A stretch of DNA of 64,000 bases from Thermoplasmata archaeon (GTDB lineage Archaea > Thermoplasmatota > Thermoplasmata > Lutacidiplasmatales > UBA184). Positions 4,254 to 56,090 of the stretch are shown here, piece by piece. The stretch covers positions 67,015 through 131,014 of the forward strand of contig JAJYEA010000001.1 in the NCBI GenBank assembly GCA_021790425.1, given 5' to 3'. The notes under the pieces are model-generated. The model was not told the origin of the DNA and searched no databases. It saw nothing but the letters and a program-made list of their open reading frames with translations. The number at the start of each line of letters is the position of its first letter. Position 1 is the stretch's first letter. Position numbers and translations under genes: made by a program.

Positions 4254-5585
4254 GTGGTGTGCGAAGAATGGTTGATGGCGAGGGTAACCTCTCCCCTGGT
4301 GGGAACCGGAAAGAACCCAACAGGAGGAGAGGCGAATGGAAGGAGACACACACCCGCATATCGATTTTGGAGGACTGCTGTCGAGCGCCGAACACTGGGG
4401 AATACGGGCGTTGGAGCGCCTCCTGGAGGACACCGAGGAGGTCCTCCTGGGGGAGCTCCACCGGGAGAAGACGGAGTGCGGAAGGCAACGCTACGTTCGT
4501 CATGGACGCCGGCCCCGGAACCTCGTCACCAAGATGGGGAAGGTCACGCCCTGGGTGACCCGAGTCCGTGATCGCCTGACCGGGCGGGTCTTCTCCCCCC
4601 TGGTGGAGGCGTTGGGGCTGGGACGGAAGCGCTACACTCCCGAGCTCCGTCTGGCGGCGGCGGAGCTCGCCACCCGCACCTCCTATGAGGAGGCGTCCCA
4701 AGCCCTCGAACGGACCCTGGGCTTCCGCATCCCCCGCCGCACCATCTGGGACTTCCTCCAGGAGTTGGCGGACACCCTGGAGATCACCCTGAAGGAGACC
4801 GCGCCACCCCCTTCGGAGGTGACCCTGAGGCTCAGCCACTCCGTGGACTCCACCTTCGTGCGAGGGAAACGCGCGCGAGAGCAGCACGAGGTGGAGGTAG
4901 CGATCACGCAAGGACAGGACCACCGGGTGAAGCTGGTCGGGGTCGCCATCGACCGGCGCCCCGGTGTGGCCCTTGGGGATACGGAGGTGCACCACCTCAC
5001 CACGGATGACGCGCCGGGGCTGAGGGCCCTGGACGCGGAGCACCGTCAGCTCTGTCACGTGCACTTCGTGCGGCACCTGGCGGGCCTCTTGGGGGAGGAG
5101 GGGGTGAGCCTTAGGGAGCGGGAAGAGATCCTGAGCCCTCTCCGGGGTCTCCTGGCGCACCTGCGGAACTCCGTGGAAGCGCACCGGTATGACGGGAGCG
5201 TGGGAACGGTGACCGAGCGAGTGCGCGTGACGCTGAGGGAACTAGGGGTCGTGGGACTGCGCCTGGAACGAGCCGGGTGCCCCCAGTCGGCCCGCTTCGT
5301 GCTGAGGGAGATGCGATCCTTGGTGGTGTTCGCGGAGGTGGGGAGGGAGCTGTGGATGCCCGCGACCTCCAATGGAGTGGAGCGCGTGATGGGGATGATC
5401 GCGGACCGGTGCAAGCGGAAGTGGGCGCATTGGAACCGAGGGCTTCACAACATGGTGCTGGCGCTCCTTGCCCGCAAGATCCGCCCTGTGGTCTATGGAG
5501 TGGCGACCCGCAAGTATCTAAAGGCGCGAGGCTATGGGTGAGTGGCTTCCGTTAGGGGCGTCGTCTACCATTATCCACACACCAC
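4254..5585 (+). mobile_element. IS256-family insertion sequence (~1.33 kb), complete
   Basis: Terminal inverted repeats GTGGTGTGCGAAGAATGGTTGA (4254-4275) and its counterpart ending ...CACACACCAC (5564-5585) match 18/22 (20/27). They are flanked by the 9-bp direct repeat CTCAGGGAA. A single transposase ORF fills the element. Confidence 0.7.
4336..5541 (+). CDS. IS256-family (Mutator-like) transposase
   Basis: 401 aa. N-terminal region RYVRHGRRPRNLVTKMGKVTPWVTRVRDRLTGRVFSPLVE...SYEEASQALERTLGFRIPRRTIWDF fits the IS256 transposase consensus (R-Y-RNG-R-R-L-T-G-V-VPR-RD-G-F-P-L ... S-V-LE-L-G-S). The C-terminal motif TSNGVERVMGMIADRCKRK also fits. A GGAGGAGAGG Shine-Dalgarno site lies upstream of the ATG. 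Confidence 0.75.
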   Translation: MEGDTHPHIDFGGLLSSAEHWGIRALERLLEDTEEVLLGELHREKTECGRQRYVRHGRRPRNLVTKMGKVTPWVTRVRDRLTGRVFSPLVEALGLGRKRYTPELRLAAAELATRTSYEEASQALERTLGFRIPRRTIWDFLQELADTLEITLKETAPPPSEVTLRLSHSVDSTFVRGKRAREQHEVEVAITQGQDHRVKLVGVAIDRRPGVALGDTEVHHLTTDDAPGLRALDAEHRQLCHVHFVRHLAGLLGEEGVSLREREEILSPLRGLLAHLRNSVEAHRYDGSVGTVTERVRVTLRELGVVGLRLERAGCPQSARFVLREMRSLVVFAEVGRELWMPATSNGVERVMGMIADRCKRKWAHWNRGLHNMVLALLARKIRPVVYGVATRKYLKARGYG

Positions 5586-9659: not shown

Positions 9660-12600
9660 TTACTGGGTACGTGCTCCGGTCGGCGGGGAGGATGGGGCGT
9701 TGCCCGGGGGGGCCTGCTCGGGTCGCTTCGGCTTCCGCGTGAGGACCACTACCGCCACCACGGTGCCCACGATCACGGCCCCGATCAGCGCCCACCAGAC
9801 CCAGTCCGGCGTTCCGCTCCCGCTCGTCGCACTCCCGCTGGCGGCGACCACCGTCACCACCGTCGTCGTGCTCGCCGAGTGCGAGGCCGTGTCCGTCACC
9901 GTCACCGTTACCGTGTAGTTCCCCGTCTGCGTCGGCGTGCACGTCAGCGCGTCCGTGTCCTGGCTCGCGCATCCCGTCGGGAGCCCCGTGTAGGCATACG
10001 TCAGCGCCCCCGACCCGCCCGACGCCGTCACGTAGAGCGTCGTCTGCGCGTTCACCGTCACCGGGCTCGGGGAGGCGTAGAAGCTCTGGATCGTCGGGCT
10101 CCCGGGCGCCGCCAGGACCGTCAGGATCGCCTGGCCCTGTCCGGAGTACCCGTTCGCGTCCGTCACCGTCACGGTCACCGTGAAGGCGCCCGTCACCGTG
10201 CTCACGCACTTGAGCGAGGCCACGTTCGCCGAGAGGCACCCGCTCGGGAGCTGCGCGTAGGCATACATGTAGGGGGACGTCCCGCTCGAGACCGTCACGT
10301 TGAGGTAGCTCGTCCCTCCCAGCGAGACCGTCGCGGGAGAGGCCGTGAACGAGCTCACCACCGGCACCGTGTAGACCGTGAAGGTGGTCTGCGCCGTGGT
10401 CGAGCGCGGCGTGCTCGCCGAGTCGTGCACCGTCACCGTCACGGAGTAGGTCGTGGTGGTGGTGACCGTGGTGGAGCAGACCAGCTGGGTCGCGTTCACG
10501 CTCGGGCAGGTTCCCGGCTGACCGGTGTAGGCGTAGGTCAGCGGCCCCGCTCCGCCCGACGTTCCCACCGACAGGGTGGTGGTGCCCCCCGAGACGAGCG
10601 TGGCCGGGCTCGCCTGGAAGGAGGTGATGGCGGGGGCCGGCGGCAACCCCGCGACGCTCACCGTGAAGGCGGCCGTCTGGGTGACCGAGTGGGGGGTGGA
10701 GGCGGAGTCCGAGACCGTCACGGTCACGGAGTAGGTCGTGGTGGTGGTGACCGTGGTGGAGCAGACCAGCTGGGTCGCGTTCACGCTCGGGCAGGTTCCC
10801 GGCTGACCGGTGTAGGCGTAGGTCAGAGGTCCGACCCCTCCCGAGGCGGAGACGTTGAGGAAGGTGGTGCCGCCCGAGGGGATGGTGGCCGGCGAGGCCG
10901 TGAAGGCGCTGATCGTCGGTCCCGTTCCCACCGGGGCGTTCACTGTGAAGGTGGTCGTCTTCGTCGCCGTGTGGGGAGTGGACGCGGAGTCCGAGACCGT
11001 CACGGTCACCGTGTAGGTCGTGGTGGAGGTGACCGTGGTGGAGCAGACGAGCTGGGTCGCGTTCACGCTCGGGCAGGTTCCCGGCTGACCGGTGTAGGCG
11101 TAGGTCAGAGGTCCGACCCCTCCCGTGGCGGAGACGTTGAGGTAGGTGGTGCCGCCCGAGGGGATGGTGCCGGGCGAGGCGGTGAACGTCGAGATGACCG
11201 GCCCCGTGCCCGGGACGTTCACGGTGAAGGAGGCCGTCTTCGTGGCCGTGTGGGGCGTGGAGGCCGAGTCCGAGACCGTCACCGTCACGGTGTAGGCCGT
11301 GGTGGCCGTGGCCGTGGTGGAACAGACCAGCTGGGTCGCGTTAGCGCTCGGGCAGGATGCCGGCTGACCGGTGTAGGCGTAGGACAGGGGTCCGACCCCT
11401 CCGGTGGCCGTGACGTTGAGGTAGGTGGTGCCGCCCGAGGGGATGATGACCGGCGAGGCCGTGAAGGCGCTGATCGTCGGTCCCGTTCCCACCGGGGCGT
11501 TCACCGTGAAGGTGGCCGTCTTCGTCGCCGTGTGGGGAGTAGACGCGGAGTCGGAGACCGTCACGGTCACGGTGTAGGTCGTGGTGGAGGTGACCGTGGT
11601 GGAACAGACCAGCTGAGTGGCGTTCACGCTCGGGCAGGTTCCCGGCTGACCGGTGTAGGCGTAGGTCAGAGGTCCGACCCCTCCGGTGGCCGTGACGTTG
11701 AGGTAGGTGGTGCCGCCCGAGGGGATGGTGGCCGGCGAGGCGGTAAAGGCGCTGATCGTCGGGCCGCTCACCGCCGTGCCGGTCACGTGGACGGTCACCG
11801 AGTTGGAGGTGGCGGTTGAGCTGCCTCCGGTGACGGTGACGGTGGCCTGGTAGATGCCCGGCGTGGTGTAGGCGTGGGTGGTGTAGTAGGTGGAGGTGGT
11901 GGCGGTCCCTCCGTCTCCGAAGGTCCACGCGTAGGAATAGCCGGTCAGGGAGGCGGGTCCTCCCGCCACGTCAGCGCTGAAGCCCACTCCGAGGGAGGCG
12001 GGGCCGAAGGTCACGTTCGCGCTGAGGATCGCGGTGAGCGTGGCGGTCGGGCTGGGATTGGCGTTCTGTGCCGCCACGAGCTGGGCAAGCTGAGAGACGT
12101 TGAAGCTCCCCAGTCCCGTGACCGCGTCCCACCCGGGGGTGGTGGTGTAGCCGGAACCCGAGACCTTGTTGTTGCCCACGACGATGTCGTGGAACCCGAT
12201 GTGGTAGTTGGAGGTCTTGGCGATCGCGTAGAGGTCGTAGTCCGCCATCCCGTTGGCCTTGGTCGCGGTGCCGTTGTACTGGTACATGATGTCCAGCATG
12301 GCGGCGGAGGCGGGAGTTGCCAGGGACGTGCCCGCGCTCAGGGAGAACTTCGTGCTGAAGCTGCTGTCGTAGAGGACCACCCAGGTTCCGCCGATCGCGG
12401 CGATGTCGGGGATCCCCCGGTGCGTGTTGCTGAATCCGGTCATCCCGGTCTGGTAGGCCGGCGCGGCGATCGTCTTCGAGTAGCCGCCCCCGGACCCCGC
12501 GTCGTTCGCCCCCGTCGACGTGCAGGTGGGGTCGTTCGTGCCGTTCCAGGCGAACTCCGCACGGAAGCCTCCGCTCGGCAGGGGGTAGACCTGGGTTCCG

Positions 12601-14114
12601 CCCACTCCGACGCCGTAGGGGCTGTCCGCCGGCGGGTCCGAGCCGGTGGAAAGGTCAAGGGAACCGCAGTCGCCGCTCGCCGAGAGGTAGCTCTGGCCCT
12701 GGGCGGCCGCCGTCGTCCAGTAGCTCGTCGTGTACGAGGCACCCCAGCTGTTGGAGGTGATGTACACGCCGTTCGAGAGGGTGTTCCAAGTCCCGTCTCC
12801 CTCGTCGATCGCGCTGTTCGACAGGTCGACCTCGAGGGTGGCGTTGGGAGCCATCGAATGGGCCCACTCGATGTCGAGCATCGTCTCGCCCGCCCATCCC
12901 GACGAGCCGGAAGTGCACTTCGCAGCCGTGTTCCCACTGCCGATCAGCTGGAGGGTGCTGGTAGTGAACTGCGGCAGTCCCATCCAGAGGGAGAAGCGGT
13001 TCGCGTCCGCAAGGTAGCTCGTGTAGCTCGGGTCGCACATCTCGTCGAGGCCGATCTTGGTCCCCGCGCCCGTGTGGCCCATGGCGTAGAGGGGAAGGAT
13101 GTCGTAGAAGGTCTGGAGCGTCCGAGGCGAGATCCCGGGGAAGACCCCGACCGTGTAGGTGACGGAGTTCCCGCCGGAGTCGTTCACGAAGACGGTGATG
13201 TTCCAGCAGGCGGCGCTGTTGCAGTAGTCTGCCTGGGCCGGGTTGTAGTACATGTGGAGGGCCTTCAACTGGGCGGCGCTGGTCGTGAAGTGGTTGATCG
13301 TTCCGTCACCCCAGTGCCAGCTGACGGAGTAGGGGGCGGTCCCGCCCGTGATGTTGAGCTGGTAGGAGCCGTTGTAGTTGGTGGGCGGGTTCACAAAGGT
13401 CCCGGTCCCGGCATAGATGAAGAACGGACCGTTCATGCTCATGTTGAGCGTGATCGTGGCCGCGGGGTTGGCCGCCACGGGGGACCCCGCCAGGGGGCTC
13501 CACTGCAGGAGGTTCTGAGGGACCGGGGGGTTCACGGTCTGGAACCCTCCGTCGATCTTGACGAGGGAGGCGAGCGAACTGGGAAGCTGGAGGGGGGTGG
13601 CGGGGTAGTACCCGACGTGACCCGGCGCGCGGGCGGTCACGTAGGTGGTGCCGAAGGCGGCGTCCATGGCGGACGCGGGCCCTTGCACGTTCCACATGAG
13701 CGGGCCGACCGGGCTGACCTGCACACCCTGGCTGGTCAGGTAGCTCTCTAGGGAGGCCTGGGCCTGGGGAGACGGGCCGAAGAGTTCGTTGAACTGGTTT
13801 CCGGTGAGGAACTGATGATACAGGGGGGAAGACGGATCGTACAGGTCCTGGATGAGTTGGGCTTGTCCCTGGGGGTCATGGGTCTGGAACGTCAGCGACC
13901 CCACGACCATGTGGTCCGGGGCGAGGGGCGATCCGAGTGCGAGGTCCGCCGGCCGCACCATGGGCCCTGCCAACGGGACCAGGCTTCCCACAGACGGCGC
14001 CGGTGCGGATGCGACGGTGGCCCCCGCGGCCACGGCCCCTGGAGAGAAGGCCATGAGCATCGCGATGCCGAAGATCAACACTAGGTTCCACTTCACCATG
14101 CCAGACGCCGACAT
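9660..14114 (-). CDS. membrane-anchored surface protease: signal peptide, pro-kumamolisin-like propeptide, sedolisin (S53) catalytic domain, PKD domain, 7 x ~94-aa two-Cys Ig-like repeats, C-terminal TM
   Basis: S53 motifs GWAGETMLDIEW (Glu/Asp) and SAGTSLATPASAAM (SGTS Ser). PKD signature YAWTFGDGGT...THAY. Repeats of the form GPTISAFTASP..GGTTYLNVTATGGVGPLTYAYTGQPGTCPS..LVCSTT..TVTVTVSDSAS. C-terminal helix LIGAVIVGTVVAVVVL plus RKPKR. ATG at 14114 (MSASGMVKWNLVLIFGIAMLMA signal peptide), with TATA-like ccttaaatcc ~30 nt upstream. The track's start at 14216 is a 5' extension. Confidence 0.8.
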   Translation of the reverse strand: MSASGMVKWNLVLIFGIAMLMAFSPGAVAAGATVASAPAPSVGSLVPLAGPMVRPADLALGSPLAPDHMVVGSLTFQTHDPQGQAQLIQDLYDPSSPLYHQFLTGNQFNELFGPSPQAQASLESYLTSQGVQVSPVGPLMWNVQGPASAMDAAFGTTYVTARAPGHVGYYPATPLQLPSSLASLVKIDGGFQTVNPPVPQNLLQWSPLAGSPVAANPAATITLNMSMNGPFFIYAGTGTFVNPPTNYNGSYQLNITGGTAPYSVSWHWGDGTINHFTTSAAQLKALHMYYNPAQADYCNSAACWNITVFVNDSGGNSVTYTVGVFPGISPRTLQTFYDILPLYAMGHTGAGTKIGLDEMCDPSYTSYLADANRFSLWMGLPQFTTSTLQLIGSGNTAAKCTSGSSGWAGETMLDIEWAHSMAPNATLEVDLSNSAIDEGDGTWNTLSNGVYITSNSWGASYTTSYWTTAAAQGQSYLSASGDCGSLDLSTGSDPPADSPYGVGVGGTQVYPLPSGGFRAEFAWNGTNDPTCTSTGANDAGSGGGYSKTIAAPAYQTGMTGFSNTHRGIPDIAAIGGTWVVLYDSSFSTKFSLSAGTSLATPASAAMLDIMYQYNGTATKANGMADYDLYAIAKTSNYHIGFHDIVVGNNKVSGSGYTTTPGWDAVTGLGSFNVSQLAQLVAAQNANPSPTATLTAILSANVTFGPASLGVGFSADVAGGPASLTGYSYAWTFGDGGTATTSTYYTTHAYTTPGIYQATVTVTGGSSTATSNSVTVHVTGTAVSGPTISAFTASPATIPSGGTTYLNVTATGGVGPLTYAYTGQPGTCPSVNATQLVCSTTVTSTTTYTVTVTVSDSASTPHTATKTATFTVNAPVGTGPTISAFTASPVIIPSGGTTYLNVTATGGVGPLSYAYTGQPASCPSANATQLVCSTTATATTAYTVTVTVSDSASTPHTATKTASFTVNVPGTGPVISTFTASPGTIPSGGTTYLNVSATGGVGPLTYAYTGQPGTCPSVNATQLVCSTTVTSTTTYTVTVTVSDSASTPHTATKTTTFTVNAPVGTGPTISAFTASPATIPSGGTTFLNVSASGGVGPLTYAYTGQPGTCPSVNATQLVCSTTVTTTTTYSVTVTVSDSASTPHSVTQTAAFTVSVAGLPPAPAITSFQASPATLVSGGTTTLSVGTSGGAGPLTYAYTGQPGTCPSVNATQLVCSTTVTTTTTYSVTVTVHDSASTPRSTTAQTTFTVYTVPVVSSFTASPATVSLGGTSYLNVTVSSGTSPYMYAYAQLPSGCLSANVASLKCVSTVTGAFTVTVTVTDANGYSGQGQAILTVLAAPGSPTIQSFYASPSPVTVNAQTTLYVTASGGSGALTYAYTGLPTGCASQDTDALTCTPTQTGNYTVTVTVTDTASHSASTTTVVTVVAASGSATSGSGTPDWVWWALIGAVIVGTVVAVVVLTRKPKRPEQAPPGNAPSSPPTGARTQ
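10300..11800. repeat. tandem ~285-bp near-identical coding repeats (5 copies) inside the protease gene
   Basis: A >100-bp identical stretch (cggagtaggtcgtggtggtggtgaccgtggtggagcagaccagctgggtcgcgttcacgctcgggcaggttcccggctgaccggtgtaggcgtaggtcag) recurs at ~10442, ~10727, ~11010, ~11290 and ~11570. Confidence 0.8.
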
Positions 14115-26206: not shown

Positions 26207-29200
26207 TTATTCGCGCTCCGAGTAGGGTGGGTGCCCTTGGTCGCGTGCGGGTGGGGGAGTGCTCTCAGCCTTCCTCCTTCGCAGAATTCCGGCGGCAACA
26301 GCGACCACTATGAACGCTACAATCGCCCCCAGCAGGACGTAGCCGAGGTATCCCGGTAGTCCCAGAAAAGTAGGGGAGCCGGTGTTGGTCCCCGGGCTGG
26401 GGGAAACCTTCGTGAAACCGATGGATCGGGTAACGTTCGCTCCCTCGACCAAGACAGCCCCCGAGGACGTGCTTGCCGAGTATCCTGGGACGGACCCCAC
26501 GCTAAAGGAATAGCCCGTAGTGTTGTTGAGCAGCTTCCCAAAGGCGATGGTCGGAGTGATCGAAGATCGGTTGGAACCATTGAGGGTCACGGACCAGGAA
26601 GTTCCAGCGAGGAGCCCCGATTCGGTGAAGGTGACAGTAAACGTAGGCGGAGTGGCAGCCGTCTTCGTAAAGGTGATGACTCGGAGCACATTGGCTCCAT
26701 CAACCACCACGGACCCGGAGGGAGGGTTGGCGGAGTAACCGAACACCGCTCCGACCGAGAAGAGGTATCCCGCAGTGTTGTTGGTCATGTTGGGGAATGC
26801 AATGCCCGATTGGACGGTGGAACTGTTCGTGCCGTTGAAAGTCACGGACCAGGGCGTCCCGGATGGCAATCCTGACCCTTGGAAGGTCACCGTATAGCTC
26901 GACGTGGAGGATGTCCTGGTGAAGGAGATGGCTTCTGTCACATTCCCACCGTTTACGGTGATGTTTCCTGACGAGGGAGTGGTGACGAAACTGGCTATGC
27001 CTCCAGCAGTAAACGGGTAGGTTCCGTTCGATTCCGTGAAGGTGATGGTCGAGGTGTTCGAACTCCCCAGACGGCCACTCAGAGTCACGTTCCAATTAGT
27101 ACCCCCTGTAAGACCCGTCTCAGTGAACGTAACACGGTACTTCGGAGCCGGGGCACCTGCCGCCACGATAGAAACCGTTCCCTGTCGCTCATTGCTGACG
27201 TAAACACAGCCGTTTGCGTCATCATATGCCGCCCCGACAGGGCCGGACCCAACGGGAAGCGCCGCTACTACGTGGTTGGTCACGTCCGAGATGACGCTCA
27301 CATTGTTCGAGTCCCAGTTTGTGACAAACATCTCATCGGTGTTGCCACCATAGGCCACCCACTGAGGGTCAGAACCCACGGGGACCGTGGTGACCACCGT
27401 GTCAGTCACGTCCGAGATGACGCTCACGTCGTTCGAGCCAGCGTTCGCGACGAACACCTCGTCTTTCCCGCTGTCGATTGCCAAAGCATCTGGGCTAACA
27501 CCAACGTTGACCCAGCCCACGATGGCGTTGCTGGTATCCGAAATTATGCTCACGTTATCCGAGTAGTAGTTTGCCACAAACACCTCTCCCCGTTGGGCGT
27601 CGTAGGCTACGCTCCAGGCGTCGAACATTCCGCCCGGAGAGATTGTAGCCACCACTTTGTTGCTCGAATCTGACACCACACTCACAAAGTTCTGTCCAGC
27701 GACGAAGATCTCGCCTTTTCCCTGGTCATAGGCCAAGCCGATGGGGTTTCCCACCCCGTGAATTGTGGCGATCACGGTGTTGTTGGTTTCCGAAATCACG
27801 CTAAGGGTCCCCGAAGCGTCGTTGGCGACAAAGACCTCGTGCTTGCCACTGTCGTAGATCAAGCCCCAGGGGTTTGGTTCGACGGGCACGGTGGCGATAG
27901 CGGTGTCGCTCGCGTCCGAGATTACACTGACGTTGTTCGAAACCGACTCCGTGAGAAAGACCTCGCCAATCCCACTGTCGTCATACGCGACCCCGAAGGG
28001 AGATACCCCCACGGTGATGGTGGCCACCACTGCGTTGCTCGCATCCGAGATCACACTTACGTTCTCTGAATTACTCTTCGTGACAAAAAGATCCCCCTTG
28101 GCACTGTCATACGCCACGCCGACGGGACTCATCCCCACGGCAACGTTGGCGACCAAAGTGTCGTTCGCGTCCGAGATCACACTTAGGGTGCCCGAGAGCC
28201 AGTTTGCTACGGCGACCTCACCCGTCCCGTTGTCGTAGGCCACTCCGTCGGGGCTGCTTCCCACGCGGATCGTAGCCACCACCGTATTGTTAGCATCCGA
28301 AATCACATCCGCGTTGGTTGAATACTCGTTTGCGACGAAAACCTCGCCCTTCCCGCCATCGTAGGCCAGACCCGCAGGTCCAGACCCCACGGCGATGGTC
28401 GCCCTCACCGTGTCGTTGTTCGCCGAGATCACACTCACATTGTCCGAGTTCGTGTTCGAAACAAAAACCTCACCCCTGGCGCTGTCATACGCAGCTCCAT
28501 CAGGGTTTGTGCCCACATTGACAGTGGCGACCACCTTGTTGCTGCTGACGGAGATCACGCTCACGTTGTTCGAGTTGTAGTTTGCGACAAAGACCTCACC
28601 CATCGCGGCATCATACGCTAGCGCGAGTGGTCCTGACCCGACGGGGACGGTCGAGACCACGGAGTTGTTCCCATCGGAAACCACGCTCACCGTGTTCGAG
28701 GCTTGGTTTGCAACGAAGATCTCACCCACCCCGCTGTCATACGCCAACGCGTAGGGGTCTGAGCCTACGGTGACATTCGCGACCAACCGGTCGCTCACGT
28801 CTGAAATCACGCCTACGGAGTTCACATTGCCTGCGACAAAGAGTTCCCCCTTCCCGCTGTCATACACTACACCCCCAGGGTCCCAGCCATTTGCAGCGAG
28901 AAAGTTGCCGGGGACCAGTGTGTTGTTGGCGAGGACCAGCGTGTCCTTCACGTACGGAAGTACGGAGGTGTGGTGGGTCGGAGACAGTCGATGTTCTACG
29001 CCTTGCGATGGGGTAGCATCAATGCTTCTCGTGGGAGACATGGCCACGGCATCCCTGACTTGACCCAACGCCGTGAGGTGGGGGGGACGAACCTGGATAG
29101 CTATCGACGGCCCCGGCAGGATTGCCAGAACGACAATCGCCGTCACAATCAACAGATTGAACGGCCTGCGCGGTGACCGTGCCACATGGCAAGGGAACGG

Positions 29201-29320
29201 TGCGTGAGGAAAACCTTGTCGCCCCCCTAACGCGTCCCCTGGTCTCGATAGTATCTGGCACTCTTCTCTGGCGAAAGATTGACCCCGACTGTCGAGAGGG
29301 AAGCCGCGTTCCATGGGCAC
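26207..29320 (-). CDS. cell-surface YVTN/NHL beta-propeller repeat protein with 3 C-terminal thermopsin-like ~100-aa repeats and a C-terminal TM anchor
   Basis: ~13 copies of a ~42-aa repeat (VANxxSNxVSVISDxxNxVVATIxVGxxPxGxAYD). Three repeats of the form YxVTFTESGLxxGTxWSVTLNG. Signal-peptide-like RRPFNLLIVTAIVVLAILPGPSIA. C-terminal helix LGAIVAFIVVAVAAGIL plus RRRK. A likely GTG start near 29184 would trim the N-terminus. Confidence 0.75.
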   Translation of the reverse strand: MPMERGFPLDSRGQSFAREECQILSRPGDALGGRQGFPHAPFPCHVARSPRRPFNLLIVTAIVVLAILPGPSIAIQVRPPHLTALGQVRDAVAMSPTRSIDATPSQGVEHRLSPTHHTSVLPYVKDTLVLANNTLVPGNFLAANGWDPGGVVYDSGKGELFVAGNVNSVGVISDVSDRLVANVTVGSDPYALAYDSGVGEIFVANQASNTVSVVSDGNNSVVSTVPVGSGPLALAYDAAMGEVFVANYNSNNVSVISVSSNKVVATVNVGTNPDGAAYDSARGEVFVSNTNSDNVSVISANNDTVRATIAVGSGPAGLAYDGGKGEVFVANEYSTNADVISDANNTVVATIRVGSSPDGVAYDNGTGEVAVANWLSGTLSVISDANDTLVANVAVGMSPVGVAYDSAKGDLFVTKSNSENVSVISDASNAVVATITVGVSPFGVAYDDSGIGEVFLTESVSNNVSVISDASDTAIATVPVEPNPWGLIYDSGKHEVFVANDASGTLSVISETNNTVIATIHGVGNPIGLAYDQGKGEIFVAGQNFVSVVSDSSNKVVATISPGGMFDAWSVAYDAQRGEVFVANYYSDNVSIISDTSNAIVGWVNVGVSPDALAIDSGKDEVFVANAGSNDVSVISDVTDTVVTTVPVGSDPQWVAYGGNTDEMFVTNWDSNNVSVISDVTNHVVAALPVGSGPVGAAYDDANGCVYVSNERQGTVSIVAAGAPAPKYRVTFTETGLTGGTNWNVTLSGRLGSSNTSTITFTESNGTYPFTAGGIASFVTTPSSGNITVNGGNVTEAISFTRTSSTSSYTVTFQGSGLPSGTPWSVTFNGTNSSTVQSGIAFPNMTNNTAGYLFSVGAVFGYSANPPSGSVVVDGANVLRVITFTKTAATPPTFTVTFTESGLLAGTSWSVTLNGSNRSSITPTIAFGKLLNNTTGYSFSVGSVPGYSASTSSGAVLVEGANVTRSIGFTKVSPSPGTNTGSPTFLGLPGYLGYVLLGAIVAFIVVAVAAGILRRRKAESTPPPARDQGHPPYSERE

Positions 29321-43482: not shown

Positions 43483-44203
43483 CCCGCTCTTCCTCCTGAA
43501 CCTCAAGGCCTACCCGAGATCGATCGGAACGGGGGCCCGGGAGATGGGACGCACCCTCGCCCAGTTCTCGAAGATGACCGGGGTCTCGGTGGCCATCGCC
43601 CCTACCCCGCCGCTCGTCGGACTGCTCGCGAGCGAGCTCACGATCCCCGTCCTGGCCCAGCACGCCGATCCCTTCGAGGCGGGGGCGCGGACGGGCCACG
43701 TTCCGCCGGCGGCCGTCCGGGCGTCGGGCGCGGTGGGAAGCCTCGTCAACCACTCCGAGCACCGGCTCCCGCGCGACGCCATCGCGGCCGTGGTCCGGCT
43801 CCTCGAGGCCGAGGGGCTCACGGCGGTGGTCTGTGCGGGGGACGTGGCGGAATCCCGGGAGCTTGCCGCCCTCTGCAAACCCCCGTATCTCGCGGTCGAG
43901 CCACCCGAGCTCATCGGGGGGGACGTTTCGGTCTCCCGCGCAAAGCCCGAGGTCATCCGTGCGACCGTGGAGGCCGTTCATCAGGTCTCGCCCGCGACCC
44001 GCGTGCTCTGCGGGGCGGGGATCAAGAACGCCGAGGATGTGCGCCGGTCGCTCGAGCTCGGCGCCGAGGGCGTCCTCGTGGCCAGCGCGGTCGCGAACGC
44101 CAGGGACCCCCCGGCCGCCATCCAGGAACTCCTCGGTGGTTTCCCTTCCGCCCCGGCGCACAGGGCCCCGACGCCCCCAGCGGCCGCCCCCGGCACAGGC
44201 TAA
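43457..44203 (+). CDS. tpiA: triosephosphate isomerase (archaeal type)
   Basis: LLNLKAY N-terminus, NHSEHR catalytic His/Glu region, CAGD, GAGIKN. ATG at 43457. Confidence 0.85.
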   Translation: MGARTELGSPLFLLNLKAYPRSIGTGAREMGRTLAQFSKMTGVSVAIAPTPPLVGLLASELTIPVLAQHADPFEAGARTGHVPPAAVRASGAVGSLVNHSEHRLPRDAIAAVVRLLEAEGLTAVVCAGDVAESRELAALCKPPYLAVEPPELIGGDVSVSRAKPEVIRATVEAVHQVSPATRVLCGAGIKNAEDVRRSLELGAEGVLVASAVANARDPPAAIQELLGGFPSAPAHRAPTPPAAAPGTG

Positions 44204-44246
44204 ATACCGTCCGCCGTATCGCGCTCCGCGCAGCGTGGACAATCGT

Positions 44247-44321: not shown

Positions 44322-44343
44322 CTCCTCAGCCGCGATGGGTTCC

Positions 44344-45906: not shown

Positions 45907-45917
45907 GACCTTGCCTC

Positions 45918-47303: not shown

Positions 47304-47319
47304 CGCTGCTGGCGAGCCG

Positions 47320-47332: not shown

Positions 47333-47354
47333 ACCATTGCGCTCTCGTAGCTTT

Positions 47355-48609: not shown

Positions 48610-51558
48610 TTGTCTTGGCATGTACCGCTGCCGCGGGGGAAGAAGACTGAGTCGAACGTGTGGACCATCGGACTGGCCTTGGTGTTGCTCGCCTCACCCA
48701 TGGCCATCCTCGCCCATGCCCAACCTGCCCCGTCCTCCTCTCAGGCAAGAGGGGTGACGGCTGCCGGTTCGGCCGGGCGGGTCTCTGCGGCTCCGAACGG
48801 CGCTTCCCCGCGGGCCCCCGCGGCCACCCTGAGCGGCATCGATGTCTCGGGCTACCAGGGCGCGAGCATCAACTGGGCCTCGGTCAAGTCGGCCGGGAAC
48901 AGCTTCGCCTTCGCCCGCGCGGTCGAGTACTACGGTGTCTCGGACACGGATTTCGCCACGAACATGGCGAACGGCAAGGCGGCCGGAGTCTACATGGGCG
49001 CCTACGACTTCGTCTACCCGTCCAGCGAGTCGTCGACCTCCGACGCCGACTATTTCAACAGCATCATCAAGCCCTATGTCGCGTCGGGATACATGTACCC
49101 CGCGCTCGACCTAGAAAAGGACTGCTCCGCCTCCGGGGGAACGATGAGCGCATCCCAGATCACCACATGGGTGAACGGCTGGGGAACGGAGCTCGAGGCC
49201 GACCTCGCGACGGACGGCTTCCCGGGCGTCCACCCGATCGTCTACATGAACTCGAACTACGCCAACAACTGCATCGTGGCCTCCTCGTGGGGGGGCTGGA
49301 GCCTGTGGATCGCCGAGTACTACAACACGTGCGCCACCTCCCCGGCACCGAACACCGGGGTGTTCAGCACCTACGCTTTCTGGCAATGGTGCAGCACGGG
49401 AAGCTCCGGCGGGATCAGCCCCGTTGACCAGGACGTGTTCAACGGGGGCCTCTCCCAGCTCCAGGGCGGGTATCTCTTCGGCCTCTCCGTCTCCTACGCG
49501 ATGAAGGACCTGACGACCAATACGGTCCTCTACTGCGGTGGGTCTTTCCTGACCGGGGACAATATCCAGTTCACGGGCTCCGCCACCGGAGGGAGCGGCA
49601 CGTACACCTACGCCTGGAAGTTCGGGGACGGGTCGACGGGATCGGGGAACCCCGCCACCCACGTCTATTCGGCCACCGGGACGGTCGACCCCATGCTGAC
49701 CGTGACGGATTCGAACGGTGCGTCGGCGACCACCGGGAGCGGATGTTCGTTCACCGTGAACGCAGGGCTGTCGGTCTCCACCCCGCTTTCTGCCTCGCCG
49801 AACCCCGTCGTGATCTACAACTCCACCACCTTCACGGTCACCGCGTCGGGGGGAACCAGCCCCTATTCGTACTCCTATTCGGGACTCCCGGGTGGGTGCA
49901 TCTCGGGCAGCACCAACAGCCTGGGATGCACCCCTTCGGTCGCGGGCGCCTTTCCCGTGAAAGTCACTGTCACCGACGCCGCCGGACGTACTGCGACCTC
50001 CTCCACCACGCTCACCGTGACCGCGCCCGCACTGGTGGCGGGACCCCTGACGGCCACCCCTGCGACCATCGTGCTCAACGGCACCACGAACCTCTCGATC
50101 ACCGTCTCCGGAGGGGTTCCGCCGTATTCGTATGCCTACTCGGGTCTCCCTTCGGGATGTGCCTCCTCGAACGTCTCGCTCCTGGCGTGCACCCCGACCC
50201 AGACGGGAACGTTCACGGTATCCGTGACGGTGAGCGACCGGGCGGCGCAGACCCAGCAGGCGAACACCACGTTGACCGTGGTGGCCTCCGCGCTCATCGT
50301 TGGACCGCTCGTGGCCAGTCCGCCCACCGTGGCCGCCAACACCACCACGAACTTGTCGGTCCTGGCCTCCGGAGGGGTTCCTCCCTACACGTACGTCTAC
50401 GCCGGCCTGCCCCCCGGGTGCCTCTCGTCCAATGCCTCGTCCGTCCCCTGCCAGCCCACGGTACCCGGCACGTTCAATGTCTCGGTGACCGTGAGCGACC
50501 GGAGCGGGCAGACGCAGACCGCGAACACCACGGTGATCGTCACCCCCGATGCGCTCGCGATCACCTCGTTCGCGGCAACGCCTTCCCGGATCCTCCTCGG
50601 CAACAACACCACCCTCGCGGGCGCTACCTCGGGAGGGATCGGGCCTTACACGTATGTCTACGGAGGGCTCCCGAACGGATGCTCCTCGGTCAACGCGACC
50701 CTTCTGCTCTGCACACCGGTGGCGTTCGGATCGTTCAATGTCACCTGGACGGTGACGGATGGGCAAGGGGCGTCCCAAGAGGCCTGGACGATCCTGACGG
50801 TGACGGAGGGGGTGGTCGTCACGGGATTCAGTATCCAGCCGTCCCCCCTCGCCTATGGGAACGTCACCCAGCTCCGGGTAACGGTCCAGAACGGGACGCC
50901 GCCCTATGCGTACGCCTACAGGGGACTGCCCACCGGATGTACCTCCAAGGACGCCTCCAACTTCAGCTGCACGCCTTTGGAGCTCGGCACCTTCAACGTG
51001 ACCGTCGTGGTCCAGGACGCGAACCATCTCGAGGGGGTGGGCACCGCTCGGCTGGTCGTCGTCGGGGCGCTCGTGCTCACGGGCTTTGTGGCGTCGCCCG
51101 CGGTCGTGACCCTCGGGAACAGCTCCACCCTCACCGTGACGGTCGCGGGAGGGGCTCCGCCGTACTCCTACACCTACTCGGGCCTGCCGGAGGGATGCGC
51201 GACCGAGAGCACCGGCACGCTACCCTGCAAGCCCACGGTCACGGGGAACTTCTCGATCATCGTCTCCGTGGCGGACACCTCGGGATCCGACGCGCACCGT
51301 TCCCTGGTGCTCCAGGTCGTCTCGCCGCCCCCCCCGACCCACACGACCTCCCCTACGAGCGGGCTCCCGGGGGGCCTCCCGATCGCCACCCTTGCCCTCC
51401 TCGGGGTTCTCGTTGCAACGCTCGTGGTGGGAGCGATACTCATCGTGCACCGTCGCCGGAAGAGGTCCGAGGCCCCCCCGCCCGCTTGGACCCCGGCGGA
51501 GGCACCGGCGGGGGTGGAGGGCGCCCCGATGACCGGCAGCGATTTCCCTCCCCCGTAG
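48610..51558 (+). CDS. membrane-anchored surface protein: signal peptide, GH25 muramidase (lysozyme) domain, PKD domain, 6 x ~90-aa two-Cys Ig-like repeats, C-terminal TM
   Basis: GH25 consensus GIDVSGYQGASINWASVKSAGNSFAFARAVEYYGVSDTDFATNMANGKAAGVYMGAYDFVYP. PKD signature YAWKFGDGSTGSG..THVY. Repeats of the form ..SGG.PPYSY.YSGLP.GC.S.N.S...CTP...G.F.V.VTV.D. C-terminal helix LLGVLVATLVVGAILIV plus HRRRKR. TTG start with a signal-peptide-like N-terminus; alternative GTG at 48658. Confidence 0.8.
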   Translation: MSWHVPLPRGKKTESNVWTIGLALVLLASPMAILAHAQPAPSSSQARGVTAAGSAGRVSAAPNGASPRAPAATLSGIDVSGYQGASINWASVKSAGNSFAFARAVEYYGVSDTDFATNMANGKAAGVYMGAYDFVYPSSESSTSDADYFNSIIKPYVASGYMYPALDLEKDCSASGGTMSASQITTWVNGWGTELEADLATDGFPGVHPIVYMNSNYANNCIVASSWGGWSLWIAEYYNTCATSPAPNTGVFSTYAFWQWCSTGSSGGISPVDQDVFNGGLSQLQGGYLFGLSVSYAMKDLTTNTVLYCGGSFLTGDNIQFTGSATGGSGTYTYAWKFGDGSTGSGNPATHVYSATGTVDPMLTVTDSNGASATTGSGCSFTVNAGLSVSTPLSASPNPVVIYNSTTFTVTASGGTSPYSYSYSGLPGGCISGSTNSLGCTPSVAGAFPVKVTVTDAAGRTATSSTTLTVTAPALVAGPLTATPATIVLNGTTNLSITVSGGVPPYSYAYSGLPSGCASSNVSLLACTPTQTGTFTVSVTVSDRAAQTQQANTTLTVVASALIVGPLVASPPTVAANTTTNLSVLASGGVPPYTYVYAGLPPGCLSSNASSVPCQPTVPGTFNVSVTVSDRSGQTQTANTTVIVTPDALAITSFAATPSRILLGNNTTLAGATSGGIGPYTYVYGGLPNGCSSVNATLLLCTPVAFGSFNVTWTVTDGQGASQEAWTILTVTEGVVVTGFSIQPSPLAYGNVTQLRVTVQNGTPPYAYAYRGLPTGCTSKDASNFSCTPLELGTFNVTVVVQDANHLEGVGTARLVVVGALVLTGFVASPAVVTLGNSSTLTVTVAGGAPPYSYTYSGLPEGCATESTGTLPCKPTVTGNFSIIVSVADTSGSDAHRSLVLQVVSPPPPTHTTSPTSGLPGGLPIATLALLGVLVATLVVGAILIVHRRRKRSEAPPPAWTPAEAPAGVEGAPMTGSDFPPP

Positions 51559-51710: not shown

Positions 51711-54700
51711 GTGTCCGGCGGTGGTTGCCGAGGCATAGCACGGATATCTTCATTACCCCGACGGGCTCTTGCCTCGCTCGTGCGCTGGACCCGACCCACG
51801 CTGGCGTTGGTGCTCACGGCGATCTTGGTGGCAGGGTTCCTGGCCATCCCGGGAGCTCCCGGTGACATGGAGCACGGGGCGGCCCAGCTCTCGGCCGGGC
51901 TCCTTACGATGCTCCCAGCGTTCGAGTCCATCTACCCGGGCGCCCGAGACCTCGGAGCGGTTGCCCCGTCCACCCCGATGACGGTCGGCCTGGCCCTCTC
52001 TCCCAACGACCCCCGCGCGCTCGACGCGTACGTGTATGCCGAGTACACCCCCGGGTCCCCCGCCTACGGTCACGAGCTCAACCCGCAGAAGTTCCAGACG
52101 TACTTCTCCCCCTCCGCAGCGGACTACCGCGCGGTGCAGAGCTACTACGCGGCCTACGGGCTCTCGACGATCACGACCCCCGACCGGCTGATGATCGGCC
52201 TCACCGGGACGGCGGGTCACATTTCGAATGCCTTCCACACGAGCTTCCACCGCTTCCAGTTGACCGACGGGGCCGACGTCTACGGGGCCTCCCAATCGGT
52301 GGTGGTTCCGGCAGGGCTGTCGATCGACGGGGTCACCGGGATGACGAACGCCTGGGGTCCCCGACCGACCGATATCAACCCCGGGCAGGTCGAGGCCGCC
52401 GCGGCGGGCTGGGCCCACAGCGAGAAGACGGCCACGCCGGGAACATGGACATGCACCTCCGGCACGCAAGGGTGTGACGAGCCCGGCTACTACGGCGAGT
52501 ATCCCCTCTTCAACGCAGGGGATACCGGCCAGGGTGTCAACGTGGGGATCGTCGACGCCTACGACAGTGCCGAGACCCAGTCCCAGCTCCTGAGCTCCGA
52601 GCAGAGCTTCGCGAGCGGGGCAGGGCTGCCCGCGCCGCACGAGAACTTCTGGTACCCGATCCCGGGTGCGGGCAACCTGAACACCTCCGCGAGCAGCGGA
52701 TGGGCAGGGGAGACCGACCTCGACCAGCACATGGCCTTCATGGACGCTCCCGGGGCCAACATCGATGTCACGTTCGCTTCCGACAGCTCCTTCGCGGTCT
52801 ACGAGGCCGTGGACTTCCTGGTGGCCCACAACCTGACCCAGACCATCTCGATGTCGTGGGGCGAGTCCGATGTGGGGAACATGCAGGCGCCTCCCCAGGG
52901 TCCGTGCATGCCCTACTACAGCTGCAACGCGTCGTATGACGGCTCCTACGCCTTCCTTCACCCCGTGTTCGCGGAGGCCGTGGCCGAGGGGATCACCCCC
53001 TTCGCGGCCGCCGGGGACTGTGGCGCGGCGGACGGCACTTACACGGTCGCGACGGACTACCCTTCGAGCGACCCCTTCGTGGTGGGCGTGGGAGGCACCC
53101 AGCTGAACGGCAGCGGCTCCACCTATGCGGGGGAGACGGGATGGAGCGGCAACGGCACGGGATGCACCGCGAACACCGGGGGCGGGGGCGGAGGCTACGC
53201 GCCCTGGGCCCAGCCCTGGTGGCAGCACGGCCCGGGCCAGCTCACCCACCACCTCCGGGGAGTACCGGACGTCAGCGCGGACTCGGCGGACGGGACCAGC
53301 CAGGCGTCCCCGATGTGGGCCGGCTGGGTCGCCGTGGCCGACCAGATCCACGGAGGGGGGCTCGGGCTCATCGGCCCCTCGATGTACAACATCCTGAGCA
53401 ACGCCACGGAATACGCGGCCGACTTCCACGACATCAAGACCGGGAACAACGGGTACGCCGCGGGCACCGGTTGGGACCCCATCACGGGGATCGGGACCCC
53501 CGTCACTGGCGCGCTCTTGCCGGCGCTGGGCCGCTACCTGCCGCCCGTCCACGGGTCCTTGAACGTCTCCCTCGCGGCCACGCCGACCTCGGGCTCCGCG
53601 CCCCTGTCCGTCACGTTCACCGCCTCTGCGAGCGGAGGCACCCCTCCCTACTGGTACGACTTCGTGCCCGGGCTGTACCTGGGCCAAGTCTCGAACACCC
53701 CGTCCATCACCTACCCGTACGCCTCGGCCGGACCGTACTACGCGACGGTCGTCGCGTGGGATGCCGCGGGCAACTCCTCCATCTCCAACCCGGTCCTCGT
53801 CCACGTCGGCGACTCCGCGTTGACGGCGACGCTCGCGGCCTCCGCGACCCACGTTCTGGTCGGGCAGACCGTCACCTTCACGGGAGGGGCGAGCGGCGGG
53901 ACGGCACCGTACCAGTTCACGTACTTCTACGGGGACGGCACCTACGGATACAACCGGAGCACGAGCGCGACGCACGCCTACCTCTCTCCGGGCACCTACT
54001 GCGCCTACGCCTTCGTGACGGATGGGGCGGCCACGCAGAACGGCGGTGTCACGAACCCGGTCTGCGTCACGGCGAGCTATTCCTCAGGGTCGGGTCCCAC
54101 GATCTCCTCCTTCACGGCCTCCCCTTCCACCATCACCGTCGGCGGCACGACCTACCTCAACGTCTCCGCCTCCGGCGGGACGGGACCCCTCGCCTACGCC
54201 TACTCCGGCCTTCCCGCCCCCTGCGCGAGCTCCAACTCCAGCGCCATCACGTGCACCCCTTCCGCCGTGGGCGGTCCCTACTCCATCACGGTGACCGTCA
54301 GCGACAGTGCCTCTCCCCGTCACACCACCAGCGCCACGACCTCCTTCACGGTCACCTCGACCGGAGGCACGGGACCGACCATCTCCACCTTCACCGCGAG
54401 CCCCTCCTCCATCCCCGCGGGGGGCACGACCTACCTCAACGTCACCGCCTCGGGAGGCGTCGGCCCGCTGACCTACGCCTACTCCGGCCTTCCCACTCCC
54501 TGCGCGAGCTCCAACTCGAGCTCGATCACCTGCGCCCCCGCTTCCTCGGGAGGGCCGTACACCATCACCGCGACGGTCTCCGACTCGGCCCCGTCTCCCC
54601 ACTCCACCTCTGCCACCACCTCCTTCACCGTCACCCCGAGTGGAGGGACGGGACCGACCATCTCCTCCTTCACCGCGAGCCCGGCCTCTATCCCCGCGGG

Positions 54701-55958
54701 GGGCACCACCTACCTCAACGTCACCGCCTCGGGAGGCGTCGGACCCCTGAGCTACGCTTACTCCGGGCTCCCCGCTCCCTGCGCGAGCTCCAACTCCAGT
54801 TCGATCACCTGCGCCCCCACCTCCTCGGGCGGTCCGTACACCATCACCGTGACGGTCAAGGATTCGGCCTCGACTCCCCGCTCCACCTCTGCCACCACCT
54901 CCTTCACCGTCACCCCGAGCGGAGGGACGGGACCGACCATCTCCTCCTTCACCGCGAGCCCCTCCTCCATCCCCGCGGGAGGGACGACCTACCTCAACGT
55001 CACCGCCTCGGGAGGCGTCGGGCCCCTGAGCTACTCGTACTCCGGACTTCCCGCCCCCTGCACCAGCACCAATGCGAGCAGGATCACGTGCGCCCCCACC
55101 TCCTCGGGCGGTCCGTACACCATCACCGCGACGGTCAAGGATTCGGCGTCCTCGCCCCACACGACCGCCGCCACCGCCACGTTCACGGTCACCCCGGCCC
55201 CGCTCGCGATCAGCAGCCTCACCGCATCCCCCGCATCGATCCCCTCGGGAGGAACCACGTTCCTGAACGTGACCGCCACGGGGGGGTACCCCGCCTACAC
55301 CTACCTGTACAACGGCCTGCCTTCGGACTGCGCTTCCGCGAACGCGTCCACCCTGACGTGCTCCAGCATCCTGGCCGGCACCTATGATGTCACGGTCAAG
55401 GTCACCGACACCGCATCGAACTCGGCGACCCGGTCGGCCCCCTTCACCGTGCAACCGTCGGTGGCGAGCAAGCCGGTCGTGAGCCAGTTCTACGCTTCGC
55501 CCAGCCCGCTTGCCCTCGGAGGACAAACCACCTTCTACGTGTCCGCCACCGGAGGGGCTCCGCCCTACACCTACAGCTATGTGGGACTTCCCACGGGATG
55601 CTCCAGCTCGAACTCGGGATCCCTCTCGTGCACCCCGACCGGCACGGGGACGTTCAACGTCACCGTCACCGTGACGGACACCCGAGGTCAATCGGCCCTG
55701 GCGAACACCTCGGTCGTCGTCACGGCGGCACCGAGCTCGGGACCGGGGTCGACCGGGATCCTGTCGGGTTGGTCGCTCTGGATCCTGCTCGCGGTCGTCG
55801 TGGTCGCGGTGGTCATCGCCGCCGTCCTCGTTTCACGCCGACGCAAGGGACCCGGGAACGCCACCCCTCCCGGGTATCTGCCCCCGGGAGCGACCTCCGC
55901 GAGCCCGCCCTGGCAGGCGCCTCCGGGGGCTCCTCCGCCAGCCCCCTGGCAGGAGTAG
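51711..55958 (+). CDS. membrane-anchored surface protease: pro-kumamolisin-like propeptide, sedolisin (S53) domain, PKD domain, 6 x ~93-aa two-Cys Ig-like repeats, C-terminal TM
   Basis: GWAGETDLDQHMAF and GTSQASPMWAG S53 motifs. PKD signature YFYGDGTYGYN..THAY. Repeats of the form GPTISSFTASP..GGTTYLNVTASGGVGPLSYAYSGLPAPCASSNSS.ITCAP. C-terminal helix LWILLAVVVVAVVIAAVLV plus SRRRK. GTG at 51711; alternative GTG at 51777 (MRWTRPTLALVLTAILVAGFLAI), with an AT-rich box ~30 nt upstream. Confidence 0.8.
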   Translation: MSGGGCRGIARISSLPRRALASLVRWTRPTLALVLTAILVAGFLAIPGAPGDMEHGAAQLSAGLLTMLPAFESIYPGARDLGAVAPSTPMTVGLALSPNDPRALDAYVYAEYTPGSPAYGHELNPQKFQTYFSPSAADYRAVQSYYAAYGLSTITTPDRLMIGLTGTAGHISNAFHTSFHRFQLTDGADVYGASQSVVVPAGLSIDGVTGMTNAWGPRPTDINPGQVEAAAAGWAHSEKTATPGTWTCTSGTQGCDEPGYYGEYPLFNAGDTGQGVNVGIVDAYDSAETQSQLLSSEQSFASGAGLPAPHENFWYPIPGAGNLNTSASSGWAGETDLDQHMAFMDAPGANIDVTFASDSSFAVYEAVDFLVAHNLTQTISMSWGESDVGNMQAPPQGPCMPYYSCNASYDGSYAFLHPVFAEAVAEGITPFAAAGDCGAADGTYTVATDYPSSDPFVVGVGGTQLNGSGSTYAGETGWSGNGTGCTANTGGGGGGYAPWAQPWWQHGPGQLTHHLRGVPDVSADSADGTSQASPMWAGWVAVADQIHGGGLGLIGPSMYNILSNATEYAADFHDIKTGNNGYAAGTGWDPITGIGTPVTGALLPALGRYLPPVHGSLNVSLAATPTSGSAPLSVTFTASASGGTPPYWYDFVPGLYLGQVSNTPSITYPYASAGPYYATVVAWDAAGNSSISNPVLVHVGDSALTATLAASATHVLVGQTVTFTGGASGGTAPYQFTYFYGDGTYGYNRSTSATHAYLSPGTYCAYAFVTDGAATQNGGVTNPVCVTASYSSGSGPTISSFTASPSTITVGGTTYLNVSASGGTGPLAYAYSGLPAPCASSNSSAITCTPSAVGGPYSITVTVSDSASPRHTTSATTSFTVTSTGGTGPTISTFTASPSSIPAGGTTYLNVTASGGVGPLTYAYSGLPTPCASSNSSSITCAPASSGGPYTITATVSDSAPSPHSTSATTSFTVTPSGGTGPTISSFTASPASIPAGGTTYLNVTASGGVGPLSYAYSGLPAPCASSNSSSITCAPTSSGGPYTITVTVKDSASTPRSTSATTSFTVTPSGGTGPTISSFTASPSSIPAGGTTYLNVTASGGVGPLSYSYSGLPAPCTSTNASRITCAPTSSGGPYTITATVKDSASSPHTTAATATFTVTPAPLAISSLTASPASIPSGGTTFLNVTATGGYPAYTYLYNGLPSDCASANASTLTCSSILAGTYDVTVKVTDTASNSATRSAPFTVQPSVASKPVVSQFYASPSPLALGGQTTFYVSATGGAPPYTYSYVGLPTGCSSSNSGSLSCTPTGTGTFNVTVTVTDTRGQSALANTSVVVTAAPSSGPGSTGILSGWSLWILLAVVVVAVVIAAVLVSRRRKGPGNATPPGYLPPGATSASPPWQAPPGAPPPAPWQE
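54080..55200. repeat. tandem 279-bp near-identical coding repeats (4 copies) in the second S53 gene
   Basis: gggacgggaccgaccatctcc(t/a)ccttcaccgcgagccc recurs at ~54377, ~54656 and ~54935. Confidence 0.75.
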
Positions 55959-56040: not shown

Positions 56041-56090
56041 TTCCGTTCGAGACTAGACTTATGTAGGCTACGCCGTGTCTTTGACCCCGT

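Follow-up and report, generated by a model that had tools for sequence, protein, structure and literature searches.

The 64-kb window considered here (64,000 nucleotides of contig JAJYEA010000001.1 in the Thermoplasmata archaeon assembly GCA_021790425.1, with a GC content of 67%) carries on its minus strand a gene, hereafter gene A, whose 1484-aa product combines a predicted protease zymogen of the sedolisin family (S53) with a stalk of tandem immunoglobulin (Ig)-like units and a C-terminal membrane anchor (Table 1). The open reading frame (ORF) is unbroken from 9660 as far as a GTG at 14216, the ATG at 14114 being the likely start, and the product is exactly entry P0051 of the protein collection. 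The ORFs found on the opposite strand across the repeat array (e.g. 9879-11819 on the plus strand) were dismissed as by-products of the high GC content. The relatives are metagenome-assembled genomes (MAGs) of Thermoplasmata archaea, and genes for the archaeal/eukaryote-type ribosomal proteins S17e, L31e and S19e lie nearby. An initial inspection made without database searches (the sequence-only reading) had already proposed an S53 head on a seven-repeat stalk at this place, and both the head and the stalk were recovered here, the former from the unbroken frame, the PF09286 match (60 bits) and phmmer (E=5e-11), the latter by the delimitation of every unit.

Table 1. Gene A, its parts and the two other stalk genes of the window, with the basis of each assignment
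Feature	Position	Strand	Details and basis
Gene A, pre-pro-sedolisin (S53) with Ig-like stalk and C-terminal membrane anchor	9660..14114	-	1484 aa
Predicted signal peptide, hydrophobic core aa 10-30, AVAA motif	14022..14114	-	Hydropathy scan; putative cleavage site from sequence
Pro-kumamolisin activation domain, aa 63-186	13557..13928	-	Pfam PF09286, E=3e-16, 60.4 bits vs 23.5 cut-off
Beta-rich PKD-like insert, aa 231-325, 'GGTAPYSVSWHWGDGT'	13140..13424	-	Orthologue conservation; weak BLASTP match to gene B PKD
S53 catalytic domain, aa 326-690	12045..13139	-	phmmer to solved sedolisins
Canonical PKD domain, aa 697-776	11787..12026	-	Pfam PKD 72 bits, PKD_4 72.6 bits
Head-proximal homogenised block	10635..11762	-	A1 11481-11762, A2 11202-11480, A3 10920-11201, A4 10635-10919
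A5, mosaic	10365..10634	-	A4-identical core, diverged ends
A6 and A7, diverged, membrane-proximal	9834..10364	-	A6 10098-10364, A7 9834-10097
C-terminal transmembrane helix, then basic Pro-rich cytoplasmic tail	9663..9803	-	Helix 9735-9803, tail 9663-9734; hydropathy scan
Gene C, GH25 muramidase head, PKD, six units, transmembrane anchor	48610..51558	+	Units 49771-51333; GH25 Pfam 92 bits
Gene B, second S53 pro-enzyme on a like stalk	51711..55958	+	Units B1-B6 at 54096-55736

Regarding the head, the catalytic domain matches the solved sedolisins 1nlu (E=5.4e-11) and 1ga1 (E=5.8e-11) over chain residues 4-365 in phmmer, as well as TPP1 (3edy). In these alignments, D482 (SGDCG) and S597 (GTSLATP) are aligned to the SGDEG and GTSLASP motifs of sedolisin; E410 and D414 (GETMLD) were assigned by motif only, the phmmer alignment being unreliable in that stretch. 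Together, these four residues form the candidate Ser-Glu-Asp triad and oxyanion Asp, and all of them are invariant in nine orthologues. With its pro-domain, its homology to sedolisins and its candidate catalytic residues, the gene A product is a predicted member of the S53 (sedolisin) peptidases, sharing with the sedolisins and kumamolisins (MEROPS S53; 1nlu, 1ga1 and human TPP1 3edy) the pro-domain, the homologous catalytic domain and the SGD, GTS and GETxLD motifs. Unlike the characterised enzymes, which are soluble and either secreted or lysosomal, it has a PKD-like insert, a stalk of ~700 aa and a membrane anchor. The insert, of ~95 aa and with a PKD-like WHWGDG motif, has W268 and D270 invariant in 9/9 orthologues, and Pfam calls nothing over its length (aa 231-325). 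It occupies the spot where sedolisins carry a linker only, and gene B is devoid of it.

The stalk consists of exactly seven units, A1 to A7, running from 11762 down to 9834, each encoding 88-95 aa (282, 279, 282, 285, 270, 267 and 264 nt in this order). An AlphaFold2 (AF2) model of the unit, built from the 19 units of the window, has a predicted local distance difference test (pLDDT) score of 87.6 and forms a seven-strand beta-sandwich, whose best solved match is the cadherin-like module of SraP (4m02, TMq 0.70), followed by cadherin EC, PKD and phage Ig-like domains. Searched alone, A7 (PKD 33.2, He_PIG 25.6 bits) and B6 (PKD 27.3, He_PIG 25.2 bits) exceed the Pfam cut-offs; A3 (PKD 17.3), A6 (PKD 16.1) and B2 (no match) do not, the homogenised A3 and B2 remaining below every one of them. 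The model and its structural matches agree with an Ig-like sandwich as the probable fold of the units, which resemble the He_PIG, PKD and cadherin-like Ig families (PF05345, PF00801, 4m02) in being ~90-aa predicted seven-strand sandwiches with a 'GG..PY.Y.Y.GLP.G' motif. P10, G28, Y34, Y36, P40, C43, C53 and D71 are invariant in 19/19 units, the Cys pair C43/C53 being a possible difference from He_PIG and PKD domains. With 37% Ser+Thr and 11 N-glycosylation sequons, the stalk may be glycosylated. From the signal peptide, the N-terminal head and the C-terminal transmembrane (TM) helix, the protein is predicted to be anchored to the cell surface with its enzyme head distal. No NCBIfam model of a known archaeal C-terminal sorting signal matched the C-termini of the stalk proteins. 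In genes A, B and C and in the protein P0055 described below, each C-terminus has an RRK/RKR cluster after the TM helix and then 25-40 aa of Pro-rich tail, and distant orthologues have the same arrangement.

At the DNA level, A1 to A4 are 86-92% identical to one another in a codon-aligned matrix, A5 is 73-77% identical to them overall, and A6 and A7 are only 53-61% identical to all other units; in protein, A1, A2 and A4 share 95, 84 and 82% identity with A3, respectively. Tandem Repeats Finder (TRF) delineates an array at 10429-11762 with a period of 282, 4.7 copies and 86% matches, and a repeat search returned five in-register copies spaced by 279-285 bp. The longest exact self-match extends over 104 bp at an offset of 285, between A4 (10723-10826) and A5 (10438-10541), followed by runs of 76 and 65 bp, while unrelated offsets give at most ~18 bp. 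The claim that five of the seven repeats are almost identical, with stretches of more than 100 bp of perfect identity at a 285-bp period, consequently narrows to four units and a mosaic fifth, and to a single such stretch. Every unit has private substitutions, and the reading frame stays open through all of them.

The synonymous divergence (dS) amounts to 0.18-0.31 among A1-A4 and to 0.77-1.33 between these and A6/A7; in gene B, it is 0.22-0.39 among B2-B4 and ~0.8-1.7 against the membrane-proximal units. Since synonymous sites are thus also shared, selection at the protein level, by which the repeats might be kept alike, cannot explain the similarity of A1-A4 and was rejected. The ratio of nonsynonymous to synonymous divergence (dN/dS) among units lies at 0.2-0.7 with no sign of positive or diversifying selection, and the adaptive role in surface antigenic or length variation suggested by the sequence-only reading is speculation. 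Besides, the differences between units are clustered: when the 62 differences between A4 and A5 were permuted, a clean run of 104 bp was reached in 0/5000 permutations, and the 76-bp run between A3 and A4 likewise in 0/5000. Variants are spread patchwork-fashion between the units of gene A, and the four-gamete test is failed by 109 of the 210 informative-site pairs (52%), which is suggestive of recombination, short of proof. The similarity at the DNA level and the clustered tracts together point to recent duplication or gene conversion.

A like pattern is found in gene B, for which other annotations place the start at 51780 or 51867 and whose pro-domain scores 90.1 bits (PF09286; cut-off 23.5). 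Protein identity between head A and head B is only 30%, whereas A1-A4 share 67-70% DNA identity with B2-B4. Within gene B, B2-B4 are 83-90% identical and B1 74-77%, and TRF reports an array at 54086-55196 (period 279, 4.0 copies, 84% matches); the anticipated 279-bp periodicity is present, but in a weaker form than in gene A, the longest in-register exact run between units being 40 bp. Two small loop insertions are common to A1-A5 and B1-B4, as opposed to all other units of the window, and on this signature A1-A5 and B1-B4 are a single derived subtype, termed 'long-loop', which was amplified in each stalk at the end next to the head. Gene C, the units of which belong to the same family and are only 49-66% identical, serves as an un-homogenised control. 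It lies directly upstream of gene B and has a signal peptide, a PKD domain and a TM/Pro-rich anchor as in gene A, an arrangement that would put a peptidoglycan hydrolase on an archaeal surface.

The long-loop subtype is not confined to the window. A search with two alternative tails uncovered gene D (P0055/P0175), which encodes a 1016-aa protein with a phosphoesterase head (PF04185) and five units, and which lies at another locus (contig L012 of GCA_027340385.1, the version used for the DNA comparisons). Its units D1 and D2 also have the loop insertions. D1 is of a B-like subtype (70-74%). For D2, DNA identity amounts to 86-89% with A1-A4 as against 63-68% with the units on either side of it, D1 and D3, and the longest stretch that it shares exactly with an A unit of the window measures 56 bp. 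In a diverged strain (~96%; contig L017), the unit after D1 is again A-type. The A-type copy in gene D indicates that units have moved between genes. Such sharing of same-subtype units with another locus did not feature in the sequence-only reading. The N-terminus of D3 occurs as three haplotypes in three assemblies (P0175, P0055 and P0052), which differ only in short clustered patches ('GPTISAFTASPGTIPSGG' vs 'GPTINSFTASPTTIPWGG'; 'ANVASLACSPSGAG' vs 'ANVTSLTCSPSSAG'); one of these patches is A-type, as would result from gene conversion or from assembly noise. When contigs were scanned with the alternative tail, only relatives at 34-56% were retrieved, the species representative being absent or lacking the tail.

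Over longer evolutionary distances, the orthologues of head A (P0001-P0010, 48-62% identity) are borne by unrelated stalks, namely repeats of ~95 aa with a Cys pair, arrays of PKD domains or a C-terminal domain lacking a TM helix. In Thermoplasmata MAGs, the stalk family is combined with heads of the thermopsin, GH25, Kelch, PQQ-propeller, phosphoesterase and S53 types. Unlike stalks on orthologous heads and many heads on one stalk family imply that heads and stalks were reassorted repeatedly over evolutionary time; on the S53 head A orthologues, the stalk has been replaced more than once.

Taken together, gene A is best read as encoding a surface-tethered acid protease zymogen on a stalk that evolves through the duplication of units, unequal crossing-over and gene conversion, a reading to which a probability of roughly 75% is given. 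The Sec signal peptide would export the protein, and the pro-kumamolisin domain would, as in the rest of its family, hold the S53 domain inactive until its autocatalytic removal at low pH. The active head would then remain attached to the cell via the PKD domain, seven ~90-aa Ig-like domains presumably containing a disulfide, one TM helix and the Pro-rich tail. As regards the stalk, A1-A4 and part of A5 would be recent copies of one long-loop subtype, and A6 and A7 old units that escape homogenisation; the same subtype would have been amplified in gene B (B1-B4) and be present as one copy in gene D (D2). Identical tracts of 50-104 bp between units would allow strains to differ in unit number, as seen for gene B, and would make short-read assemblers break or mis-join there. 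Observed are the architecture, the mosaic similarity in DNA, one difference in unit number, the units shared with gene D and the failures of assembly; export, acid activation, rigidity of the stalk, glycosylation and any selective value of length change are deduced.

All the assemblies compared derive from short reads. A first alternative is that near-identity, unit count or both are artefacts of assembly, the array of the window having been expanded, collapsed or pieced together out of reads from paralogues (units of A, B or D) or from co-existing strains, with all variants in the other assemblies as graph-walk noise. The behaviour of the contigs lends it some weight. In no other assembly is the A array spanned in the manner of the window: L016 (GCA_027340385.1) stops in A1 after a change to A2-type sequence, and two contigs on the aconitase side, L013 and L014, both break off at one identical base where A7 ends. 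Their position 1 corresponds to window position 9854; no close copy of A7 is present in the window, and another part of the genome may contain one. In gene B, contig L002 (Logan, 100% identical) stops inside B1. Two further contigs, L001 and L017, jump between A and D. The prediction of an assembly-prone locus is confirmed by these breaks and joins. Moreover, nearly all differences among the three near-identical assemblies fall within units, those outside amounting to ~0.1% at most; the three may represent one population, for which reason small unit patches cannot be counted as evolutionary events.

Against an artefact speak the frame, unbroken through units that each carry private substitutions, and the length of the longest exact repeat, which at 104 bp would fit inside a 141-mer or a 150-nt read. 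The order of units was also found independently, A1-A2-A3 being repeated in L001 and A2-A3-A4-A5 in the diverged strain L017, so that both contigs tile the window order A1-A5 and support its array. Gene B has six units, identically assembled, in three near-identical assemblies, and the subtype structure (two loop insertions in A1-A5, B1-B4 and D1-D2) is a biological signal. An assembly artefact is considered unlikely as an explanation of the near-identity and the unit count.

A difference in unit number was observed in gene B. Contig L003 (European Nucleotide Archive, ENA, ERZ27233565; ~97.5% identical) is collinear over 18 kb with window positions 43897-61835 minus exactly 279 bp; its gene B has five units, one 93-aa unit fewer, with both flanks collinear, and the surviving unit b2 is a fine-scale mosaic alternating B2 and B3 states. 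Among these short-read assemblies, repeat numbers are accordingly 6, 6, 6 and 5 units for gene B, and the gene A cluster has members of 1484 and 1390 aa, the shorter one being an A/D hybrid. The expectation that stalk length varies between strains, and that a comparison of copy number among related assemblies would reveal it, finds its counterpart in this single 279-bp unit of gene B; gene A has its seven units end to end only in the window.

Regarding the hybrids, L001 (ENA ERZ27233562) follows the window from 24114 to 10969 with 3 single-nucleotide polymorphisms (SNPs) in ~12 kb outside gene A and 5 between A1 and mid-A3, and in A1 it has a 4-SNP cluster (window 11616-11626) that corresponds to the A2 haplotype. 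Within 8 bp (L001 13139-13146), the contig then passes over to D3-D5, followed by the D anchor and the genes downstream of D, the product being the 1390-aa P0052, an S53 head on the stalk and anchor of D. Conversely, L017 (ERZ27233565) reads head D, D1, a hybrid unit with a D2 5' part and an A2 3' part, the A3 and A4 orthologues and the start of A5. Both jumps occur within a shared A-type unit, and they are complementary, not reciprocal, their junctions lying in different units. These joins are probably assembly chimeras rather than real recombinants. It is less likely that they are real, in which case shared units would provide a portable homology through which non-allelic recombination swaps heads and anchors in natural populations. 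If so, an S53 head on a phosphoesterase stalk and anchor (L001) and a phosphoesterase head on an S53 stalk (L017) would represent ongoing domain shuffling, and would explain both the unrelated stalks on orthologous S53 heads and the occurrence of one stalk family with many heads.

Several points weigh against the reading of gene A as a tethered protease on a recombining stalk. For the head, the Pfam Peptidase_S8/S53 model (PF00082) gives no match to the catalytic domain, and AF2, given an alignment of nine sequences, modelled the 784-aa head with low confidence only (mean pLDDT 46.5), the model not being used for fold search. For the stalk, the seven-unit count and the A4/A5 identical tract come from one assembly, and the five-unit allele of L003 could be a collapsed assembly. 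DNA-level tandem repeats are absent from the other Thermoplasmata stalk loci compared (L004-L011), which makes homogenisation specific to the present genes and not general to such stalks. A distance-dependent permutation test akin to the pairwise homoplasy index (PHI-like) was not significant for recombination (p=0.07-0.99), so part of the site incompatibility could be recurrent mutation. Finally, a dS of ~0.2 in A1-A4 greatly exceeds the divergence between sampled strains, and most of the homogenisation is then old and not demonstrably ongoing. Of the concerted evolution put forward initially, the DNA-level similarity and the clustered tracts stand; the qualifier 'ongoing' is not established, the patches seen in ~99.9% identical assemblies being equally well explained by graph-walk noise.

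The non-significant PHI-like test, along with pairwise dS values that are fairly uniform (~0.2-0.3) among A1-A4 and D2, would also suit one burst of tandem duplication and plain divergence thereafter, with neither gene conversion nor turnover, the units being merely young; yet A5, 23-27% diverged overall, is identical to A4 over 104 bp, synonymous sites included, variants are distributed as a patchwork, no single tree accommodating 52% of the informative site pairs, b2 of L003 alternates B2 and B3 states, and an A-type unit sits amid unrelated units in gene D, all of which makes such a burst improbable.

Among known systems, the closest to gene A are the bacterial Periscope Proteins (SasG/Aap, Rib, Sgo_0707 and others), defined by tandem repeats of >50 aa and at least 80% identity whose number varies among proteins sharing at least 90% identity (Whelan et al., 2021; PMC8201768). 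High DNA identity was proposed there to drive intragenic recombination and the change in repeat number between close strains, and the class was defined on long-read genomes; such repeats are a known problem of short-read assembly (PMC8201768). As in gene A, Periscope Proteins are cell-anchored, with an N-terminal functional domain on tandem, mostly Ig-like folded repeats. The units of gene A, with 88-95 aa and with A1, A2 and A4 at 82-95% identity to A3, fit the repeat criterion, whereas the variation in repeat number is read from short-read assemblies; the Pfam family Big_13, created in the same study, matches gene B at 58.6 bits. Differences are nonetheless manifold: the host of gene A is archaeal and not bacterial, archaea going without mention in the main text of PMC8201768; the head is a predicted protease zymogen instead of an adhesin; anchoring is by a TM helix and Pro-rich tail at the C-terminus, in place of LPXTG; only 4-5 of the 7 units are homogenised, at 86-92% DNA identity, below the classic cases; and the variation seen here is of only one unit, with one same-subtype unit in a different gene. 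Gene A thus appears as an archaeal, enzyme-headed case of a known, Periscope-like kind, with possible recombination between different stalk genes as the potentially new part.

Within the Thermoplasmata, extracellular S53 and thermopsin peptidases have been described in Lutacidiplasmatales and Cuniculiplasma (Sheridan et al., 2022; PMC9287336). They agree with gene A in class, in peptidase family and in the acid-active extracellular proteolysis proposed for them, and the high-GC genome of gene A fits Lutacidiplasmatales. The passages of that paper on peptidases and surface proteins differ from the present description in that they list families, without stalk architecture or DNA-level repeat homogenisation.

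Beyond this locus, the idea of variable-length surface proteins would be extended from bacterial adhesins to archaeal exo-enzymes and, if confirmed, cell-tethered acid proteases, a muramidase and a phosphoesterase would have in common an evolvable Ig-like stalk in uncultured acid-soil Thermoplasmata. The sharing of units between genes offers a testable route to the reassortment of heads and stalks. On the practical side, gene models, copy numbers and gene-to-gene joins at stalk loci are unreliable in short-read MAGs, and it is uncertain whether P0052, a public protein with S53 and phosphoesterase parts, is a real hybrid.

As for dedicated variation systems, nothing seen pointed to a diversity-generating retroelement or a phase-variation switch, no search having been made for a reverse-transcriptase gene or a template repeat. 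Elsewhere in the window, a 126-bp tandem repeat (28520-28812; 2.1 copies, 73-74% matches) lies within a 1037-aa ORF on the minus strand (26207-29320). A 401-aa UPF0236 (transposase-like) gene at 4336-5541 on the plus strand is found in the window and in the ENA contig L013 and is missing from the otherwise identical L014 (GCA_027340385.1), which makes it an insertion polymorphism.

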